Shown one piece after another: positions 2,674 to 10,866 of a stretch of 64,000 nt of DNA; position 1 is the first letter of the stretch, and every line of letters starts with the position of its first letter. A model generated the notes under the pieces. It ran no database searches, was not told the DNA's origin, and was given only the letters and a program-made list of their open reading frames with translations. The stretch spans positions 24,854-88,853 of the forward strand of contig QZJG01000060.1 in assembly GCA_003599275.1 (NCBI GenBank), in the 5' to 3' direction. Position numbers and translations under genes: made by a program. This stretch comes from Nitrospiraceae bacterium (GTDB lineage: Bacteria; Nitrospirota; Thermodesulfovibrionia; UBA6902).

Positions 2674-4881
2674 TTATATTATGCTGCCTACCTGTGAAAC
2701 TGATATTGTTTGTAGAATCCCTCTCATATACCCCAAGAAGTCATTGTAAAAGTCTGGATAGCAGAAGTACAAATCTTCGTATCTACCAATCCTCGGTAAA
2801 CGCAATGCATCAATCTGGTCTCTGCGCATTCTAACGGTCAAAGTCTGCATTTCCCTTCTTGTCGGCTTCTCCCTATTTTCAAGTCTTATTTTAAATCCCT
2901 CATCAACAATAACCGTAACCATCTCATTGTCTTCTATAACTTGAAACAAGTTAGCGACACTTGGATAATTGGCTCGGTTCTCAGCTTGTACTATCAAATC
3001 ATCAATAGCCATGCCGGTATTTTTTTCACGAATTTCCCTCAGCAATGCTTCTGTGCAGAAATCAGGGCCGATTTTCCCCTCGTCAAAAAGCTTTGCCAAA
3101 ACAGCAGCAGAGGTCTTGAAATGTTTGTGATCCCTGAGAACCTCATCTTTTTTAATATAAAAACACCATAACTCACAATCCGCACCATACTCACACTGCC
3201 TATTTACCCGTCCGCCAAGCTGTATTGTGCTCCCAAGGCTGCTCATCTCCCTTGCGCCAGAACGAAACGAGAAGTTTAGCCCTGCCTCAGCGCAGGTAGT
3301 AGCTACAAGTGTCCAATCCGTATCCTTCTTGTCTTTTAGTCTCAACTTGATTTTTTTAAGCGTATTTTCTCGGTCAATAGGGGTAAGTGCTGTTGAGAGA
3401 TGCTCAACCACATCTCGGCCTCTATTGTTCTCAATCTTATCAGCTAAGGCTGCCGCAGACTGAACCGTGTTCATAACAACGATTCGCGGACCTTGCAGGT
3501 CATGCACCCACTGATACAGCTCATCAAGACTCATAGGATTTTTCTTCAGACGATATGCAATTCTGGTCTGCTCATGTTGTGCAGCCTTCATGTAAAGAGT
3601 GTCCCCTGCAATTTCTGGAACAATAGTTTTTGTATCTGAGAATTCTTTCAGGTGCCAAAAATGAGAAAGCGAGCCGGAACCAAGAACAACATGGCACCCC
3701 CAGTTTTCTACCAAGGCTTGTAACCATTTCCATGCCTGAGGCCAAAGATGTGCTGGAAGAGCGGCATGTGCCTCATCAATAAAAATCGCAGCACCTGGGA
3801 GGTTGTGAAGTTTTCTGAGTGATGAGGGTCTATTACCTGCAAGTGTCTCAAAGAACTGAACAGCAGTTGTCACTGTGATTGGGGCACTCCAGCGAAACGA
3901 AGAAGCCATTAACAATTGATTCTTGTATTCAGCTTTGTGATGATGAGCAGCCACTATAGCTTCAGTGTCTTCACCGGGGAGAATCAGTGCTTTGCGGTAC
4001 GTTTCTACAGACTGATCAATAATATTGGTAAACGGCAGCACAACAAAGACTCGGCGAAGGCTGAATTGCTCTGCCACTCTCAAGAGATGAGCCATCACAG
4101 AGGTTGTCTTGCCGGTTCCAACAGGCATGCTGCAAGCATTAACCCCTCTATTCTTTGGTTCTGTACTTTTGCAAATATGATAAAACTCTTGCCTTACAGC
4201 AAGCCTTTCAGGGGTAACTTCTTCTGTTGGAAGTGAATGGATATGTGCATCAAGACATTCAAGCCTTTTTGCCGGATAAAGAGGAATGTCAGCTGCAAGG
4301 ACCTCCCCTCCGTAATGCCTTGCTGTATCAGAATGATCCGCATCAACAAGACAGGAAAGGGCCATCCGGTAGAAAAGAGTATCCTTCGGCTTCCCGCCCT
4401 CTGACAGTTCATTCACTGAATTCTTTATTTCTGATGCGTGTTTTGTGAGATAATCCCTCAGATTTTCATTGGTAATATCCATTAACGTTTTATTAGAAGA
4501 GATGACTCGATTAACGTTCCTAAATTTATGCTCCTTTGATAGCTCCTCCCATATCGAGGGAATACCTCCATGATGTGCGAACACAGAGAGAGCTGCGGGC
4601 AGATGGCTTTTTAAGAGAAGAGCCGTACCAGCATCCTCATGTTTTACAGGAAGTTTCTTCTGTGGCTTATCCGAAAGGACTTTTTGATTTGCCGCATCAA
4701 TCTTCCCTAAGTCGTGATACTCAGCAGATGTGCATACTGACGACATGAACAGTTCACCACATGCAATGTGCGGAAGTACGCCCGACGCAAAAACCTTAGC
4801 CATTCGCATTACCTCCGACACATGCTCCAGATATGACTGTTTCGGATAGCCATAGCGTGCACTGTGTGCTAAAAGCTCCAT
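2674..4881 (-). CDS. cas3: CRISPR-associated helicase/nuclease Cas3 (HD + SF2 helicase), compact I-C type
   Basis: HD motifs LAHS, EH, YHDLGK, KHE, AHHG, LVDAD; helicase motifs PVGTGKT, VLPFTNIIDQ, DEAH, EAG, QLGGRVNR; 735 aa. Confidence 0.95.
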   Translation of the reverse strand: MELLAHSARYGYPKQSYLEHVSEVMRMAKVFASGVLPHIACGELFMSSVCTSAEYHDLGKIDAANQKVLSDKPQKKLPVKHEDAGTALLLKSHLPAALSVFAHHGGIPSIWEELSKEHKFRNVNRVISSNKTLMDITNENLRDYLTKHASEIKNSVNELSEGGKPKDTLFYRMALSCLVDADHSDTARHYGGEVLAADIPLYPAKRLECLDAHIHSLPTEEVTPERLAVRQEFYHICKSTEPKNRGVNACSMPVGTGKTTSVMAHLLRVAEQFSLRRVFVVLPFTNIIDQSVETYRKALILPGEDTEAIVAAHHHKAEYKNQLLMASSFRWSAPITVTTAVQFFETLAGNRPSSLRKLHNLPGAAIFIDEAHAALPAHLWPQAWKWLQALVENWGCHVVLGSGSLSHFWHLKEFSDTKTIVPEIAGDTLYMKAAQHEQTRIAYRLKKNPMSLDELYQWVHDLQGPRIVVMNTVQSAAALADKIENNRGRDVVEHLSTALTPIDRENTLKKIKLRLKDKKDTDWTLVATTCAEAGLNFSFRSGAREMSSLGSTIQLGGRVNRQCEYGADCELWCFYIKKDEVLRDHKHFKTSAAVLAKLFDEGKIGPDFCTEALLREIREKNTGMAIDDLIVQAENRANYPSVANLFQVIEDNEMVTVIVDEGFKIRLENREKPTRREMQTLTVRMRRDQIDALRLPRIGRYEDLYFCYPDFYNDFLGYMRGILQTISVSQVGSII

Positions 4882-4887
4882 GTCTTT

Positions 4888-5883
4888 CTACCTCATCCGA
4901 TCCATAAGGTCTTCTATCGTGACCCTGCCATCGAACTGTTTGAAAATGTCTGGATGATCCTTCTTATTCGGGATAGTGTATTCACTTCGCACAGCAGACG
5001 GCTTATCTTTAGCCTCTCTTTTTTTAGGCATTAGCGCATCAATCAGATCAAAATCATTACAAGAGCCTCTCTGATTGTTATGCTCTGCGTACCAAGCGTG
5101 CAATACCTCAACCTGTGTCCGAATGGAAGATGGATTGTGCGAATATACATAAGGAATGAGTTCCAGAGCAACATCCACATCCTGCTTTGTACAGCCTGTT
5201 ACGCTGGCTGGTGTTGGGCTAACAAAAAAAGGAATGGCGTAAATTCCATGCTCAACGAATTTAAATGCACCCGGCGCCATGCCAGCAGTTTTTCCCGCTT
5301 CCACACCAGCCTTGTTCGTCATGGTAAAGTCAGTGCGAACACTAACCGGAGCGACCGAAAGTCCGAGCCCAAAGTGAACTACGCCTGTTTTAATATTTTT
5401 TTTGAGAGCAAGCGCTTCTTCTGCTTTTTTATTCTTACCGTTATCCGCCTTTGACGGTTTTTCTGCAGTTGAACTTTTTTTAGGTTCGTCCTCTGCTTCT
5501 TCCAAAAATGTGTTCCCAAAAACACGCCCGTCCCAATATGTCTTAACAAACCGTTTTTCTTCAAGAGGCTTAGAATCATCCTCTATAATCGTTTTTTTAA
5601 TTTCACCGCGTTTTCTATCACGTTCCTCAAGGATTTGAAAACGAGTCGCATCCAGGCTGAATTTATTTTGCAAGTAGAGCCAGATAGGTCCTTTTTTATT
5701 CCCAACAAGGTCTCTCATTTTACGCCTGACGGATACATGTGAGATTTCCCCAATATCTCCTCTACGCTTTCTGGGGGCTCCGTCACGTTCTGGGTCACCG
5801 TTAGGATTTGAGTTCCGCACTTCAACAATAATCAACCCTGTTGCTCTCTGAATGTCATTGCTTTTTGCCGTATCGCTTGTCAT
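4888..5883 (-). CDS. cas7: Cas7 (Csd2/Cas7c-like) Cascade backbone subunit
   Basis: VRNSNPNGDPERDGAPR, GEISHVSVRRKMRD and WDGRVFG motifs; lies between cas8 and cas3. Confidence 0.88.
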   Translation of the reverse strand: MTSDTAKSNDIQRATGLIIVEVRNSNPNGDPERDGAPRKRRGDIGEISHVSVRRKMRDLVGNKKGPIWLYLQNKFSLDATRFQILEERDRKRGEIKKTIIEDDSKPLEEKRFVKTYWDGRVFGNTFLEEAEDEPKKSSTAEKPSKADNGKNKKAEEALALKKNIKTGVVHFGLGLSVAPVSVRTDFTMTNKAGVEAGKTAGMAPGAFKFVEHGIYAIPFFVSPTPASVTGCTKQDVDVALELIPYVYSHNPSSIRTQVEVLHAWYAEHNNQRGSCNDFDLIDALMPKKREAKDKPSAVRSEYTIPNKKDHPDIFKQFDGRVTIEDLMDRMR

Positions 5884-5885
5884 AG

Positions 5886-6302
5886 CTATTCTCCTCCTTC
5901 ATTTTTTTGTTCATGGTTATAATCTGAACTATAATCTTTCTTTGATCCATAAGAAAGATACCCCAGCAACACCTTAGCCTTTTCTGAATCAGTAATCTCC
6001 GTGGGAAGCTGTGCCTTCGATAACTCGTCCGTTAATTCCGCAATTCTCCTGATACAATTCTTTGCTATTTGACCAGGTTTTTCATCCGTACTAACACGTT
6101 TTGCCCAAGAAAGATATGGATGTGCAAGCCTGCTGCTCAAAGTCAAGAATGCCTCCAATGGGTTCTGTAATGCCAGTTTCATGTTATCATTCCCCAAAAG
6201 ACTGATAGGAACATTCCCTGATCTTACATCCATATGATATTGGATGTAGAGGTCATCAACCACTGCAAAATATCTTCCGAGATAAAACAAATTTTCATTC
6301 AT
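5886..6302 (-). CDS. cas11: Putative Cas11 small subunit translated in frame from inside cas8c (138 aa, MNENLFYLGRY...)
   Basis: AAGGAAGGAGG-attac-ATG: perfect Shine-Dalgarno 5 nt before an in-frame ATG at 6302. Internal Cas11 translation is established for I-B/I-C/I-D. Confidence 0.65.
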   Translation of the reverse strand: MNENLFYLGRYFAVVDDLYIQYHMDVRSGNVPISLLGNDNMKLALQNPLEAFLTLSSRLAHPYLSWAKRVSTDEKPGQIAKNCIRRIAELTDELSKAQLPTEITDSEKAKVLLGYLSYGSKKDYSSDYNHEQKNEGGE

Positions 6303-8084
6303 GTAATCCTCCTTCCTTATTCCTTTCTTAAATAAAAGTAGTCCGTATAGAGATGGAAGCATGTGCAGATAAGATGTGTCCTTGAACTTAATCTTTGCTC
6401 CCGTTTTATGGTAATCATGGCAAGCCTTTAATGCTGCCGAAATAATAACATTAGAAGTTATTTCAACAATAAGAGTGAGCCCCGTTTCAATACGTTGACC
6501 AATAATCTCATCTCCTTCAAAAAGAAAATCCAGCGCCTCATCAGCCGCGAATCGCCGCGATTGAGTACGTAGTGTTCCGTCTTGATCCCAATCGCTGTTA
6601 AGAAGTTTGATGGCTTCTATGGGGTAAAGAGGGATGGCATCTCTCGTACTTCTCTTCTCACCCCCATCCTTCTTCTTATTAAGAGAGATCCACGGCAGGC
6701 TTACACTTGGGATGTTAGCATTACATGCTTGCCATCGGGACGCCCCCTCTGTGAGTTGGGGCAATGAATACTTGCGGCTGGCAAGAATTTTAGTATTGCC
6801 ACGGTCTACGGCAGCCAAAACATAAAATGATATTTTTGCATCCGGCTTTTGCTGAGCTACTCCATCAAAAGGTGTCAATGCAAGTTTTGTAGCCGCTTCG
6901 CTTCGATATATATCCTTGTCGGAATCATCTTCCTCCCTGTCAAAAAACTGCAAAGCATTTGCATCTTTCAATTCTGTGCAATAGGCAACGACAACAGTTT
7001 TGCGGCTATTCTTCTTGGGCTCATACCGCGTAAGGCTTCTCCATGTAGTTCCTTCCATTTTTTGATTCAGGATATAATCCATGCCTTTGGATGCCATCTT
7101 TCTAATTTCGGAACCTGCAGAAAATAAAGAAGGCCCTTCAAGACCATAACGGCTAAGACACGGAATTTGAGGGTTTGCCGAAAAAGGAACTATAGGACCG
7201 AGTCCACCTACACTAATGGGAGAAAAAATCTCGACAGCCCCAGCAGAGTCTCTCCCATATGCATCGGGCTGACCAGTCGGAACATAGTGCATTTCACTAT
7301 AAGACTCAAACCGCGTTCTCATCCAATTCTGAATTTTCGTAGAATATGGTGGATATTTCTCTATCTCAGGGTCAGGAGGATATTCATTCCAGTCCTCAAT
7401 AGTCAGAAGGTAAAGAAAATCTTTTCCATGCTCCTTACCTCTCCGTTTCTTCTTTCCCTTGTCCTTAACTGCAAAGAGAGCTTCGGCATAAACCTTTTCA
7501 CCTGTTTCTATTAATTTCTGCATTAGTATAGAGCAGACGCTTTTTTGTAGTTCCTCTGGTTCACATGCACGTGAGCGATTGATAAGCTCCTCCAGCACTT
7601 GGTAGGGTTTAGGAATTTCTCCGATCATTGTTTTTATGATATCGGGCGTATCCTTGAGACACTTGCCAAGCCAGTCCATATCATCACGCCAAAGGTTATT
7701 ACATTTGGTCATCAGTTCATTTAACACAAGGTCTTTGACCGGTTTTATTGCTCTTGTGCGTGAATTCGTCAAGTTTCCTATAAACGAATGGATGTCGTTT
7801 TTATTATCCGATGAGAAAGCAGGTAGAGGATCTGGTATTTCAAATAAAGCTCTGACATTGAACGCTGGAAAAGTAGGTGTATGATTATCCTCTTGCCATC
7901 TATAAACCTCCTCAATTTTAAAGTCTGTCAGTGCACTTATGTCGCTAATCTTGCCAGATTCGTCCAAAGACAAACTAAACGCAGCCTTCCCTTTGGGACA
8001 CTTTCTAAAATGAGGATACGGAGTGTTGAAATCGCATCCGAGTTTCTTGAGTGCGCCGTAAATATCCACCAATTCATTCAGCAT
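5886..8084 (-). CDS. cas8c: Cas8c-like large subunit (divergent, 732 aa)
   Basis: Lies between cas5 and cas7. The C-terminal helical segment (FYLGRYFAV.D.L...ALQNP...F..L...LLGYL) resembles the Cas11-like tail of Cas8c. The N-terminal part is divergent. Confidence 0.75.
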   Translation of the reverse strand: MLNELVDIYGALKKLGCDFNTPYPHFRKCPKGKAAFSLSLDESGKISDISALTDFKIEEVYRWQEDNHTPTFPAFNVRALFEIPDPLPAFSSDNKNDIHSFIGNLTNSRTRAIKPVKDLVLNELMTKCNNLWRDDMDWLGKCLKDTPDIIKTMIGEIPKPYQVLEELINRSRACEPEELQKSVCSILMQKLIETGEKVYAEALFAVKDKGKKKRRGKEHGKDFLYLLTIEDWNEYPPDPEIEKYPPYSTKIQNWMRTRFESYSEMHYVPTGQPDAYGRDSAGAVEIFSPISVGGLGPIVPFSANPQIPCLSRYGLEGPSLFSAGSEIRKMASKGMDYILNQKMEGTTWRSLTRYEPKKNSRKTVVVAYCTELKDANALQFFDREEDDSDKDIYRSEAATKLALTPFDGVAQQKPDAKISFYVLAAVDRGNTKILASRKYSLPQLTEGASRWQACNANIPSVSLPWISLNKKKDGGEKRSTRDAIPLYPIEAIKLLNSDWDQDGTLRTQSRRFAADEALDFLFEGDEIIGQRIETGLTLIVEITSNVIISAALKACHDYHKTGAKIKFKDTSYLHMLPSLYGLLLFKKGIRKEDYMNENLFYLGRYFAVVDDLYIQYHMDVRSGNVPISLLGNDNMKLALQNPLEAFLTLSSRLAHPYLSWAKRVSTDEKPGQIAKNCIRRIAELTDELSKAQLPTEITDSEKAKVLLGYLSYGSKKDYSSDYNHEQKNEGGE

Positions 8085-8721
8085 ATTCGAGCCTTCCTTT
8101 CACGATGTTGCGACCGCTCTCGTTCTGGACATATCTTGGAGAACGAACCCCAGTGACTTGGTCGTATACGGAGTACAGAAACGACGACAGGACTTCATTT
8201 GCCGAAGTCTGGACTTCCGTATTATTCCTGAATGGACCTATGTAATTGGGCACAAATTCACGCCATCCAAGACAAGGAGTGTCATGAAACTGACCTCTAA
8301 TCAACCGCCTTTTGAAACGTTCTTGCCCATAATGACATGAATTGACTTCGGCAAGTTGTCCCGCTTCTTTGAGAGTTTTTGGAACATACTTGAAATCCTC
8401 AATCCTCGCGTAAAGTCTATAACAAACATTAATGAGAACTGTTGCCTTATGCTGAAAAAGATTCCCTTTTCTTATAGACTCGTCCTTTCTCAGCGGGCCT
8501 CCATAGTTTGTAGTGTAGTCGTGATAGACGATTGGAGCGCAGAGTTCCACGGCTGTAGGGATGATGATCGCATTCTTCAAACGTGATATCGATTCAAATA
8601 GTCCTTTTGCGGCCGACCATGTCGGCACGGGATAGCTGATCGGTGTCGCTCCTGTGTCCGGTCTTGTCCACATAGCTGTTGGCCCCGCGATTTCAAATGA
8701 AACCTCGTATGATTTTTCCAT
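8074..8721 (-). CDS. cas5: Cas5 (Cas5c/Cas5d-like)
   Basis: EIAGPTAMWTRPD...SYPVPTWSAAKGLFESI and RRL.RGQF...PCLGWREF motifs of I-C Cas5. No cas6 in the locus, consistent with I-C. Confidence 0.88.
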   Translation of the reverse strand: MEKSYEVSFEIAGPTAMWTRPDTGATPISYPVPTWSAAKGLFESISRLKNAIIIPTAVELCAPIVYHDYTTNYGGPLRKDESIRKGNLFQHKATVLINVCYRLYARIEDFKYVPKTLKEAGQLAEVNSCHYGQERFKRRLIRGQFHDTPCLGWREFVPNYIGPFRNNTEVQTSANEVLSSFLYSVYDQVTGVRSPRYVQNESGRNIVKGRLEYAE

Positions 8722-8752
8722 TTACAAGCCCTCCCTTCTTTGTAGCTTTTTG

Positions 8753-8781
8753 ATTTTATGCTATCCTGTCAGCTTATACAA
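8753..8781 (-). promoter_or_regulatory. Putative sigma70 promoter for cas5 (TTGTAT-N17-TAAAAT)
   Basis: Read on the minus strand, 17-nt spacer, about 30 nt upstream of the cas5 ATG. Overlaps the stop of the cas3 remnant. Confidence 0.45.
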
Positions 8782-8957
8782 ACAAAAAAACACTTCCCCA
8801 CATCATGCAACACCCCCGCCAGATATCCCCATTCCCCCGATCCAAACGCATCCGCAAATGACCTCGCAAGTTCCGCCGACCCCTTCAAATGCTCCTCAAG
8901 TAAATGCCATTCACCAACCGGCTTTCCGTCAACACTGTGTGCGTAATATAGTTTCAC
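8769..8957 (-). pseudogene. cas3: Remnant of a second Cas3 HD nuclease N-terminus (62 aa)
   Basis: YYAHS...WHLLEEHL...AELARSFA..FG.GEWGYLAGVLHDVGK, the canonical I-C Cas3 start. It breaks immediately after HDVGK into T-rich unrelated sequence. Confidence 0.85.
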
Positions 8958-9020: not shown

Positions 9021-9554
9021 TCAGACCTCTTTCTCCCTCTTAAACCCGATCTTTTTTTTCTTCGTCTCCGACGGAATCATCAACTGCCTTATGGCATCGA
9101 AAATCAATTTAATCTCTCCATCATGTTTCTCTATCTTCCGCTCAAGCTGCGTCAGATTGCGGGCAAGCTCCTTATGTGTTATCAGCATTTCTCGAAGTCT
9201 TGTGAATGTTCTCATTATCTGGATGTTTACTGTTATCGCCCGTTCACTATTAAGAACACTTGATAACATTGCAACGCCATTTTCAGTAAAAGCAAACGGC
9301 ATTTTTCTTAATCCCATCTTTTCTTTATTGGATATCACAATTTGTGATGTCCAATTTTTCATTTCTTCTTTTGTTAATTGAAACATAAAATCCGGAGGAA
9401 ATCTCTTGAGGTTTCTCTTGACAGCCTGATTTAATGCTCTTGTCTCAACTCCGTAAAGGATGGCGAGGTCTTTGTCCAACATTACCTTTTTCCCTCTGAA
9501 AAAAAGTATTTTGCTTTCTACAACTTCCGGTGGAATGATTGCCAATGTCCCCAT
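9021..9554 (-). CDS. ORF6N-domain (KilA-N-like) DNA-binding protein
   Basis: KILFFRGKKVMLDKDLAILYGVETRALNQAVKRN..RFP.DFMFQL...PFAFTENGVAMLSSVLNS, with a KKKIGF C-terminus. Confidence 0.9.
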   Translation of the reverse strand: MGTLAIIPPEVVESKILFFRGKKVMLDKDLAILYGVETRALNQAVKRNLKRFPPDFMFQLTKEEMKNWTSQIVISNKEKMGLRKMPFAFTENGVAMLSSVLNSERAITVNIQIMRTFTRLREMLITHKELARNLTQLERKIEKHDGEIKLIFDAIRQLMIPSETKKKKIGFKREKEV

Positions 9555-9663: not shown

Positions 9664-10866
9664 TTACAGTTTGATGGCCTTCATAACTTCCAAAAGCGGC
9701 ATATTAAACTTTTTCGCTATCTTTTTGCAGTCCTCGTACTCAACGGATGACTTTTGCTTTTTATTTCCAATCCGCGCAAGCTTGACGTTAACATTGCCGA
9801 ACTTCGTCTTCACTGATTTAATCTCTCTCTGAAGCACTTTTCTTTCCGTGCTGTAGAATCTGACGCCGATGCTCGTGGTTTCACTCAGAATTATGTTTAT
9901 TAGCTTGTCTCTGTCACCTTCATCGCAGAGCACGCTCAGCTTGGTCCCCGGCCTTCCCTTCTTCATGACAAGCTGCGTTAAAAAGACATCGAGCGCCCCG
10001 GCATTGAAAAGTCTCTCCATGACGTATTCATAAACCTGCGGATTCATGTCGTCGATGTTGGTTTCGATGACCGTCACGGCATTTCCCTTTTTTTGTTTTT
10101 CTTCTTCTGACTTTTCTCCGACCATCACCATCAGCACATTCGGCTGTCCCTTGAAATCATGACCGCCTGCGCCTGCGCCTGTTTTAACAATATTCATGTT
10201 CGGGACGGGACCAAAGCCTTTTGCAAGCGACGAAACAAGCACAGCGCCGGTGGGAGTAGTGAGTTCGCATAAAATATCAGATGAGTAAACGGGGATGCCT
10301 TCCAGTAATTGAGCGGTCGCAGGGGCCGGGACAGGCAGTATCCCGTGCTCCGTTTTTATTGTCCCGCCGCCGAGATTTAAAGCTGATGAATAGATCGTAT
10401 CTATTCCAAGGATATCAAGTCCTGTCAATGTCCCAAAGATGTCAACGATACAATCAACTGCGCCTAATTCATGAAGGTGAACATCCTGCATTCTCTCGCC
10501 GTGGACCTTTGCCTCTGCCTCAAAGAGTCTCCTGAAAATGAGCAGACCTTTCTGTTTTATCTCTTTTGAGAGTGAAGACGTTTTAATTATCTTTTCTATG
10601 TCCTTCCATCTTCTGACTTTTGACTTCTGACCCCCCTTACGTCCCCCCTTGATAAGGGGGGATTTAGAGGGGTTTCTTATTTCAACATTCACCTTTGTCG
10701 CACGAATTCCCGCCCGCTTCACTTTCCTTGCCTTTAATTCATATCCGCGAATTGGAAGGAGGGACAGTCGTTTTTTTAATTCCTCAAGCGACACGCCTGC
10801 GTCAACCAGCGCCCCAAGGATCATGTCTCCGCTTATGCCTGAAAAACAATTGAAGTATGCGATCAT
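9664..10866 (-). CDS. larC: Nickel-pincer cofactor biosynthesis protein LarC
   Basis: MIAYFNCFSGISGDMILGALVDAG, HLHELGAVDCIVDI, PVPAPAT, TPTGA, ETNIDDMNPQ, MKKGRPG. Confidence 0.95.
   Translation of the reverse strand: MIAYFNCFSGISGDMILGALVDAGVSLEELKKRLSLLPIRGYELKARKVKRAGIRATKVNVEIRNPSKSPLIKGGRKGGQKSKVRRWKDIEKIIKTSSLSKEIKQKGLLIFRRLFEAEAKVHGERMQDVHLHELGAVDCIVDIFGTLTGLDILGIDTIYSSALNLGGGTIKTEHGILPVPAPATAQLLEGIPVYSSDILCELTTPTGAVLVSSLAKGFGPVPNMNIVKTGAGAGGHDFKGQPNVLMVMVGEKSEEEKQKKGNAVTVIETNIDDMNPQVYEYVMERLFNAGALDVFLTQLVMKKGRPGTKLSVLCDEGDRDKLINIILSETTSIGVRFYSTERKVLQREIKSVKTKFGNVNVKLARIGNKKQKSSVEYEDCKKIAKKFNMPLLEVMKAIKL

Follow-up and report, generated by a model that had tools for sequence, protein, structure and literature searches.

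Type I-C CRISPR-Cas loci (clusters of regularly interspaced short palindromic repeats with their associated genes) are canonically arranged as cas3-cas5-cas8c-cas7-cas4-cas1-cas2. Their signature large subunit is Cas8c (Csd1; TIGR01863 / PF09709), and further hallmarks are the cleavage of the CRISPR RNA precursor (pre-crRNA) by Cas5 and a 5'-TTC protospacer-adjacent motif (PAM). In type I-B, the order is cas6-cas8b-cas7-cas5-cas3-cas4-cas1-cas2. The locus analysed here (locus A) lies at one end of a stretch of 64,000 nucleotides (nt) from a Nitrospiraceae bacterium (contig QZJG01000060.1, C1:24854-88853 of a 74-contig draft genome, G000), hereafter referred to as the window, and had been flagged in an earlier note on this DNA as a I-C locus with a swapped interference module. 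It was compared with a canonical I-C locus of the same genome (locus B; contig C51, L004). The cassette cas5-cas8-cas7-cas3 is termed variant (V-type) throughout, and cas3 of the canonical I-C kind B-type. The evidence makes it very probable that locus A consists of a canonical I-C frame into which a foreign cassette was inserted by recombination, that the resulting system works in a I-C-like manner and that the 5' stub of the former cas3 is a scar and homology arm.

In situ exchange of effector genes on a fixed adaptation module and array has been described, and an arms race with anti-CRISPRs was proposed as its rationale (Koonin and Makarova 2019, PMC6452270). Effector exchange of this kind is a known event, and it is the detail that is unusual here. 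As in the published cases, the adaptation genes and repeats were kept and the effectors differ as variants of a single subtype. Beyond them, both breakpoints were resolved to a few nucleotides, the left boundary carries a gene-fragment scar, and the same scar precedes at least four kinds of cassette, with breakpoints within 33 nt.

By content, fold, repeats and adaptation genes, locus A is type I-C. It shares with the canonical systems of Desulfovibrio vulgaris and Neisseria lactamica, whose Cascade structures are available (PDB 7KHA, 8DEX and 8G9T), the lack of cas6, a Cas5c-type Cas5, a large subunit with a Cas8c-like fold (modelled in locus A), a Cas11 from an internal start (predicted in locus A), a Csd2/PF05107 Cas7, an HD-helicase Cas3, Cas4, Cas1c, Cas2 and 32-nt I-C repeats. 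Unlike them, it has cas3 after cas7 instead of first, its Cas5 and Cas7 score under the curated cut-offs and its Cas8 has no Csd1 match; the effectors are only 24-27% identical, with Cas8 at 11-13% in structural alignment and approximately 130 residues longer. The placement of cas3 after the Cascade genes and before cas4 resembles type I-B, as do secondary matches of profile hidden Markov models (HMMs) to Cas3b and Cas7b and the Cas8 of a I-B CRISPR-associated transposon (CAST) as the eighth fold match. Against this likeness, cas6 is lacking, cas5 precedes cas8, the best profiles and folds are those of I-C, and the repeats are I-C repeats. Descriptions of the variant I-C sub-branch or of the stub were not found in the 2025 classification paper or by full-text searching of the literature, which is no proof of absence.

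Mosaic structure of locus A

All genes of the window described here lie on the minus strand. Locus A reads (cas3 stub)-cas5-cas8-cas7-cas3-cas4-rhuM-cas1-cas2 and departs from the canonical I-C order. The genes named in the earlier note, namely cas5 (8074-8721), a cas8 encoding 732 residues (5886-8084), a cas7 with a charged insert (4888-5883) and a cas3 placed after cas7 (2674-4881; 735 residues, HD nuclease plus helicase), were all found where it had put them, and all cassette open reading frames (ORFs) are intact. So was the HD fragment of 62 residues that it described as broken after HDVGK, which occupies 8769-8957 with a GTG start and matches Pfam HD and positions 1-45 of the 178 of the TIGR01596 cas3_HD profile, with a score of 33 bits (E 4.5e-8) that lies under the 43.45-bit cut-off. 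Stub and cas5 are separated by the junction and 5' untranslated region (UTR) of the incoming cassette (8722-8768), inside which lies the cas5 Shine-Dalgarno sequence GGGAGGG. On the other side, the cassette is followed by 60 nt left over from a four-helix-bundle gene (2596-2655; the ribosome-binding site, RBS, and the first 17 codons), a Bro-N-type gene stub of 101 residues (2244-2549), cas4 (1624-2241), a complete RhuM-family gene (584-1627) and the first 194 codons of cas1 (1-582), which continues past the window edge. The gene cas2 and the array are located outside the window at C1:21386-24350, beyond the rest of cas1. The "conventional cas4 and cas1" of the earlier note are both there; it had missed the four-helix remnant, the Bro-N stub and the RhuM gene between them and the cassette or each other.

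Locus B, arranged on C51 as cas3-cas5-cas8c-cas7-(four-helix gene)-cas4-cas1, clears the NCBI curated I-C cut-offs (Csd1 517 bits, Cas5c 165 and Csd2 374). At the nucleotide level, the two loci can be aligned on the left over an ORF6N-domain gene (9021-9554; 72% identity) and from the cas3 start codon to approximately position 8787 (80%), and on the right over window 2655-2596 (87%, to C51 2516-2575), cas4 (74%) and cas1 (86%), and the approximately 6 kb between these homologous flanks are not homologous. The breakpoints relative to locus B were thus placed at approximately 8787, just past the HDVGK codons and where homology to canonical cas3 ends, and at 2655. Homologous flanks around a non-homologous middle indicate that a segment beginning at cas3 codon ~56 and ending with the cas7 stop was replaced by the UTR plus cas5-cas8-cas7-cas3.

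Protein comparisons followed the same boundaries. Over 52 residues, the stub shares 77% identity with residues 4-55 of locus B Cas3 (80% at the nucleotide level), and it showed no similarity to the N-terminus of the full Cas3 of its own locus. In the frame, Cas1 of loci A and B is 94% and Cas4 76% identical, and in the cassette the values are 27% for Cas5, 24% for Cas7 and 25% for Cas3. Pairwise comparison of the two Cas8 proteins returned no alignment, and profile-profile comparison gave a weak C-terminal alignment only (probability 37%, E 3.5e-4). The comparison of base composition proposed in the earlier note was likewise run, and G+C content at third codon positions (GC3) was 38-44% in the cassette and 50-55% in cas4, rhuM, cas1 and cas2, with 52% in the LarC gene (9664-10866).

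Histories of effector and adaptation genes

A Cas1 search gathered 41 I-C loci from the phylum, which were annotated against the proteins of loci A and B, and phylogenetic trees were computed over 32-33 of them, 13 with the variant and 20 with the canonical order. All 13 variant-order loci fall into one clade in the trees of Cas7 and of Cas3, set apart from the 20 canonical-order loci by a branch of 1.8-1.9 substitutions per site with a support of 100. Mapping the order label onto the Cas1 tree requires 11 changes, of which at least seven are forced by well-supported branches; shuffled labels do equally well, with a mean of 10. The separate trees called for in the earlier note were therefore strongly incongruent between effectors (Cas7, Cas3) and Cas1, and a single effector clade with random-like scatter on the Cas1 tree supports a module swap.

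Close pairs bear out the same pattern. Locus A Cas1 groups with that of locus B (canonical) and that of G010 (variant order), a genome of the same genus as A. G010 Cas1 is 96% identical to that of locus A and its Cas8 only 22%; nucleotide homology covers the stub together with the opening 130 nt of cas5 (82%), then the four-helix-gene stub and cas4 through cas1, and nothing alignable was found between the cas5 start and the four-helix-gene stub. Conversely, the whole cassette of locus A is 86.7% identical to that of L005 over 6.3 kb, compared with 69% for the adaptation genes. Two crossovers can be seen, one inside the stub (A versus L005) and one inside cas5 (A versus G010). Cassettes are also shuffled internally: the closest Cas7 to that of locus A is from L008 (87%), with 71% for L005, and the closest Cas3 is from L005 (88%).

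These results support the view that locus A combines a frame derived from canonical I-C with a distinct I-C effector cassette. The frame (stub, four-helix-gene start, cas4, rhuM, cas1, cas2 and array) falls within a close-knit clade of canonical I-C adaptation modules, and the cassette (5' UTR, cas5, cas8/cas11, cas7 and cas3) within a deeply separate I-C effector branch in which cas3 always comes after cas7. The order cas5-cas8-cas7-cas3-cas4-cas1-cas2 was found in every relative placed in context, with Cas8 identities from 88% to 23%, and relatives with the variant architecture, stub included, occur among Nitrospirota, Brocadia and other metagenome-assembled genomes (MAGs), those from Nitrospirota being the close relatives. 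Since the order is constant across relatives, locus A is ordinary for its effector clade. A swap that kept the resident adaptation genes and array, as the earlier note had it, agrees with flanks, trees and GC3; the event is not particular to this genome, and the gene order, whose commonness in the lineage the earlier note would have counted against its reading, is the norm for the whole effector clade.

The variant effector proteins

Variant Cas5 (PF09704, 42 bits) scored 32 bits with TIGR01876 (Cas5c), under the 85-bit cut-off, and this was still its best-scoring subtype model; I-C Cas5 chains were likewise its best matches among PDB sequences (E 7e-9). It is the only non-Cas7 protein of the RAMP (repeat-associated mysterious protein) kind in the effector operon and is presumed to be the pre-crRNA endonuclease; no cas6 was found among the genes between stub and cas4 in locus A, nor in any of the 13 variant loci. 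Variant Cas7 (PF05107, 128 bits) reached 91 bits with TIGR02589 (Csd2), under the 182-bit cut-off and again with the I-C model as the best subtype, and carries its charged low-complexity stretch at approximately residues 128-165. Variant Cas3 has the HD motifs, Walker A and the DEAH box, contains the domains Cas3-like_C_2, ResIII and DEAD, passes the TIGR01596 cut-off (48.5 bits) and matches PADLOC Cas3c with an E-value of 2e-98.

Cas8 had no match in Pfam and NCBIfam, including TIGR01863 and PF09709, and only 14 bits with the PADLOC copy of Csd1. Another Cas8c profile of PADLOC, PDLC01562, matched it over its full length (E 1.8e-99). The low Cas8c score foreseen in the earlier note was therefore obtained with the curated Csd1 models and not with PDLC01562, and matches to the PADLOC Cas8c and Cas3c profiles indicate that curators of Cas profiles had already sampled the variant branch. 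A sequence search against the PDB returned chance matches only. An AlphaFold model computed from a 26-sequence alignment had a predicted local distance difference test (pLDDT) of 83 and a predicted template-modelling score (pTM) of 0.74, and the top seven chains retrieved with it by Foldseek from the PDB were all I-C Cas8c, the best being 8g9t_K of N. lactamica (E 1.5e-10) and the others, of D. vulgaris, deriving from 8dex, 8dfa, 8dej, 8dfo and 7kha, at 11-13% identity. The template-modelling (TM) scores on the target were 0.39-0.55 for these seven chains and 0.54-0.55 for four of them. As modelled, variant Cas8 has a Cas8c-like fold and is covered by a PADLOC Cas8c profile as well; profile and fold place it with Cas8c, and the curated Csd1 models do not recognise it. 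A profile search of 1.84 billion representatives returned 702 clusters of this Cas8 family at E<=1e-30, counted at 50% identity, nearly all of them full length.

The C-terminal domain of the Cas8 model superposed on the Cas11c chains 7kha_K and 9jhc_A with TM-scores of 0.67-0.68. Met595 is kept in at least 90% of the 26-sequence alignment and in 13 of 13 variant loci, and in all 13 an AAGGAGG-like Shine-Dalgarno sequence is embedded in the cas8 frame 6-8 nt before it. Start and Shine-Dalgarno sequence being conserved, an internal cas11 of 138 residues is predicted at 5886-6302, in line at the sequence level with what defines Cas11c. An arrangement of this kind has been published for Cas11c in a preprint (bioRxiv 10.1101/2020.04.18.045682).

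Array, repeats and PAM

The array that the earlier note proposed to recover beyond base 1 was found and consists of 38 identical 32-nt repeats and 37 unique spacers. The repeat, GTCGCGCCCCGTACGGGCGCGTGGATTGAAAC, ends in ATTGAAAC and matches D. vulgaris I-C arrays, including that of pDV. Every one of the 38 repeats identified in the genome adjoins locus A. Among the loci gathered, identical repeats stand beside variant and canonical cassettes (L005 = L016 = L026, L028 = L033 and L029 = L031). Given identical repeats and near-identical Cas1 and Cas4, both Cascades probably accept the same crRNA handles and PAM. The different PAM suggested in the earlier note is unlikely for the same reason, as one set of repeats and adaptation proteins serves both kinds of effector.

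The cas3 stub and its junctions

Fragments of the 5' end of B-type cas3 were found directly upstream of variant cassettes in locus A, L005, L006, L008, L009/L010, L012, L028, L029 and L032, and also before two other, cas3-first kinds of cassette (L016/G070 and L046, on G443 contig C45). Further copies are present in L014, L017, L020, a second contig of G038 (L047) and upstream of locus B. All stubs end within codons ~46-57, and at least four different sequences follow them, namely two junction types of the variant order and the two cas3-first kinds. A recurrent scar before several kinds of cassette, with clustered breakpoints, was not found in the literature searched.

Two of these copies have surroundings of their own. 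L014 (G422 contig C106, 2500-6100) contains a cas3 stub, cas4, cas1, cas2 and a repeat and no effector genes, and looks like a frame that lost its cassette. At C51 9250-9610, upstream of the intact ORF6N-cas3 of locus B, part of an ORF6N gene was observed along with another partial cas3 stub; the latter (C51 9344-9436) is 85% identical to the locus A stub over 60 nt and was regarded as an older copy. Such nested scars suggest an earlier round of replacement.

The left junction itself was resolved by comparison of loci that share it. Over the UTR (8722-8768), locus A and L005 show 0 of 47 differences, and 43 of 47 positions are identical in L012. The stubs of A and L005 differ at 21 of 86 positions, which against the unchanged UTR places a crossover within the last ~35 nt of the stub. 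The stub ends adjoin a G-rich, Chi-like sequence, CTGGCGGGG, and at window 8790-8830 (minus strand), as at the same site elsewhere, a G-rich Chi-like motif, ATCTGGCGGGG..TG..GCATGAT.TGGGGAAG, was noted immediately 5' of the site where stub breakpoints cluster; that it might act as a hot spot of recombination is wholly speculative. When the 150-nt stretches preceding 13 stubs and cas3 starts were aligned with MAFFT, no common motif of the kind expected for a conserved operator or leader emerged. In L006, a palindromic insert of ~75 nt (GGGGACTGTCCC...GGGACTGTCCCC; 9190-9265) splits the cas3 stub and keeps the frame; related sequence is found in the stubs of L017 and L020, and the insert looks like a miniature repeat element.

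Alternatively, the stub might be a maintained small gene or docking site, with a peptide of ~55 residues or its DNA under selection. For pairs of stubs, and for stubs paired with intact cas3 5' ends, ratios of nonsynonymous to synonymous substitution rates (dN/dS) were 0.10-0.26 at dS 0.7-1.8, and most stub divergence was therefore accumulated under constraint at the protein level. The stub of locus A has an RBS and a GTG start, the stub ORF overlaps the cas5 start in L006 and the Brocadia loci, endpoints at codons 46-57 recur before at least four different sequences, and stubs persist in genomes without an intact B-type cas3. All this would suit a selected element. Many stubs are nevertheless damaged: L012 lost its start and has a frameshift, L028 carries a stop codon in frame and has HG in place of HD, HD is missing from L014 and L029, L047 has a frameshift, and L007 and L008 have decayed. 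Moreover, 2-6 of 16-27 columns invariant in intact Cas3 are altered in the stubs, including W50 in A and L005, an HD active site is impossible from 55 residues, and between junction-sharing stubs the differences per codon position are weakly skewed (6/4/10 and 5/5/11). Selection on the stub as such is, on balance, improbable.

A scar doubling as a homology arm, which is the reading we prefer for the stub, would let it be renewed from intact genes and hold its end point in place. Renewal by an intact cas3 in the same genome was considered as well and dropped as a requirement, as nine stub-bearing genomes have no such gene. A more far-reaching proposal, to which we give limited credence, is that the first ~165 nt of canonical I-C cas3 may form a dedicated boundary element for swapping interference cassettes. 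If so, either a hot spot or homology arm there would make I-C loci acceptors of cassettes or the peptide of 55 residues would be selected.

Working model and alternative explanations

In the model that we favour, the cassette would have recombined into a canonical locus and replaced the segment between cas3 codon ~56 and the cas7 stop, and the operon would be transcribed from the promoter and start of the former cas3, by way of the stub. The I-C repeats would be cut by Cas5, Cascade would be assembled on the crRNA from Cas5, Cas8, Cas11 and Cas7, and Cas8 would read a TTC-like PAM, the same that Cas4-Cas1-Cas2 select. The cassette's own Cas3 would then be recruited and degrade the target. The stub would be left as a scar, available as the left homology arm whenever cassettes move between I-C frames. 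By analogy with described exchanges, escape from anti-CRISPR proteins that bind Cascade or Cas3, which the earlier note had also suggested and which is plausible, is the most likely driver of the replacement.

Several observations weigh against this model or parts of it. As to the exchange, stub breakpoints cluster within 33 nt before at least four unrelated sequences, for which simple homologous exchange is insufficient; homology cannot be the source of the junctions with unrelated cassettes. Nine other stub-bearing genomes have no intact B-type cas3, their best match being 41-44%, and the role as homology arm draws on one clear crossover (A versus L005) plus the overall pattern. As to function, Cas5 has a Tyr at the position that aligns with a conserved His in some Cas5c proteins, and the alignments of Cas5 with PDB sequences are too divergent for safe mapping of catalytic residues; the same position also varies in D. 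vulgaris Cas5c. The 37 spacers had no match in the rest of the genome, the array gave repeat-to-repeat matches only against phage and plasmid collections, and no IMG/VR match was obtained for exact 24-mers taken from spacers 1-3, so that no protospacer was obtained and no PAM derived. Finally, the candidate promoter that the earlier note had placed after the stub was not recovered: a consensus scan of the minus strand over 8722-8768 gave no match and no convincing promoter was identified. By eye, a weak TTGTAT-17-TAAAAT is visible there, under the scan threshold, and promoter-like sites are not enriched in the region, with nine found against 13.1 expected in shuffled sequence.

The empty promoter scan would also suit a decaying or silent locus A, with interference provided by the C51 locus through a shared array. 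The genome has a single assembled array, adjoining locus A, and debris surrounds the cassette in the form of the four-helix-gene and Bro-N stubs. C51, however, stops 212 nt beyond cas1, and the assembly contains neither a cas2 nor an array for locus B; an array of locus B was most likely just left unassembled. Furthermore, the ORFs of the cassette keep their full length and their motifs, its nucleotide identity to intact relatives is 86-87% (85-92% for the Cas5, Cas8 and Cas3 proteins and 71-82% for Cas7), and an array with 37 unique spacers is contiguous with the locus. We regard a relic as quite unlikely, somewhat more so than a selected stub.

Neither of the two remaining explanations merits serious weight. 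An internal rearrangement, in which the locus moved its own cas3 from first to last and its proteins then diverged, would account for a gene content that equals canonical I-C with only the order changed, yet it is already contradicted by a stub that resembles locus B Cas3 and not the N-terminus of the downstream Cas3, by effectors 1.8-1.9 substitutions per site away next to a 94% identical Cas1, and by a cassette GC3 10-15 points under that of the frame. An assembly artefact joining two I-C loci across shared sequence, as a 74-contig draft with two loci 74-86% identical in cas4 and cas1 might produce, is just as implausible, because the stub-cassette-cas4-rhuM-cas1 layout recurs in independent assemblies from several phyla (L005, L006, L007, L009/L010, L012, L028, L029 and L032), with the junction sequence common to A and L005 and largely to L012.

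Neighbouring genes

Upstream of the stub, the ORF6N-domain gene (PF10543, E 1.4e-34; PADLOC PDC-S05) forms the flank common to loci A and B, and at least four paralogues with 68-74% nucleotide identity were observed on contigs C48, C18, C69 and C24 of the same genome. Downstream of the cassette, the four-helix-bundle gene (PF05635 / TIGR04258) usually precedes cas4 and is intact in locus B, L005, L008 and L012. In locus A, the N-terminal third of a Bro-N/PDC-S13 gene (positions 2-96 of the 286 of the PADLOC profile, E 4.7e-39) has taken the place of the rest of the four-helix gene, and full-length relatives of the Bro-N gene flank several other I-C loci. The frame gene cas4 was identified with TIGR00372 (145 bits) and PADLOC Cas4c, and the full Cas1 protein with TIGR03640 (Cas1c; 527 bits, cut-off 385). 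The RhuM-family gene between them (PF13310, 375 bits; PADLOC PDC-S05) has homologues with 56-81% identity in the same slot of at least nine other I-C loci with both kinds of effector (L005-L007, L012, L013, L016, L017, L019 and L028), and locus B is without RhuM there.

Significance

Locus A offers a cleanly resolved natural case in which the interference machinery was changed and the memory, comprising array, adaptation genes and repeats, was kept. The variant branch is large, with approximately 700 Cas8 clusters, yet it is without Pfam or NCBIfam models, structures or biochemistry. For want of standard models, variant Cas8 proteins are annotated as 'hypothetical', and the stub may pass for a sign of a broken system. 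Type I-C systems serve for long-range genome deletion, and a second I-C lineage that is compact may hold practical interest in that respect. For the biology of the family, two distant I-C effector lineages that use the same repeats, and probably the same PAM, constitute a natural pair for questions on the constraints acting on Cascade. Such a pair could help to tell the surfaces of Cascade on which the crRNA imposes constraints from those that may change freely and escape anti-CRISPRs.

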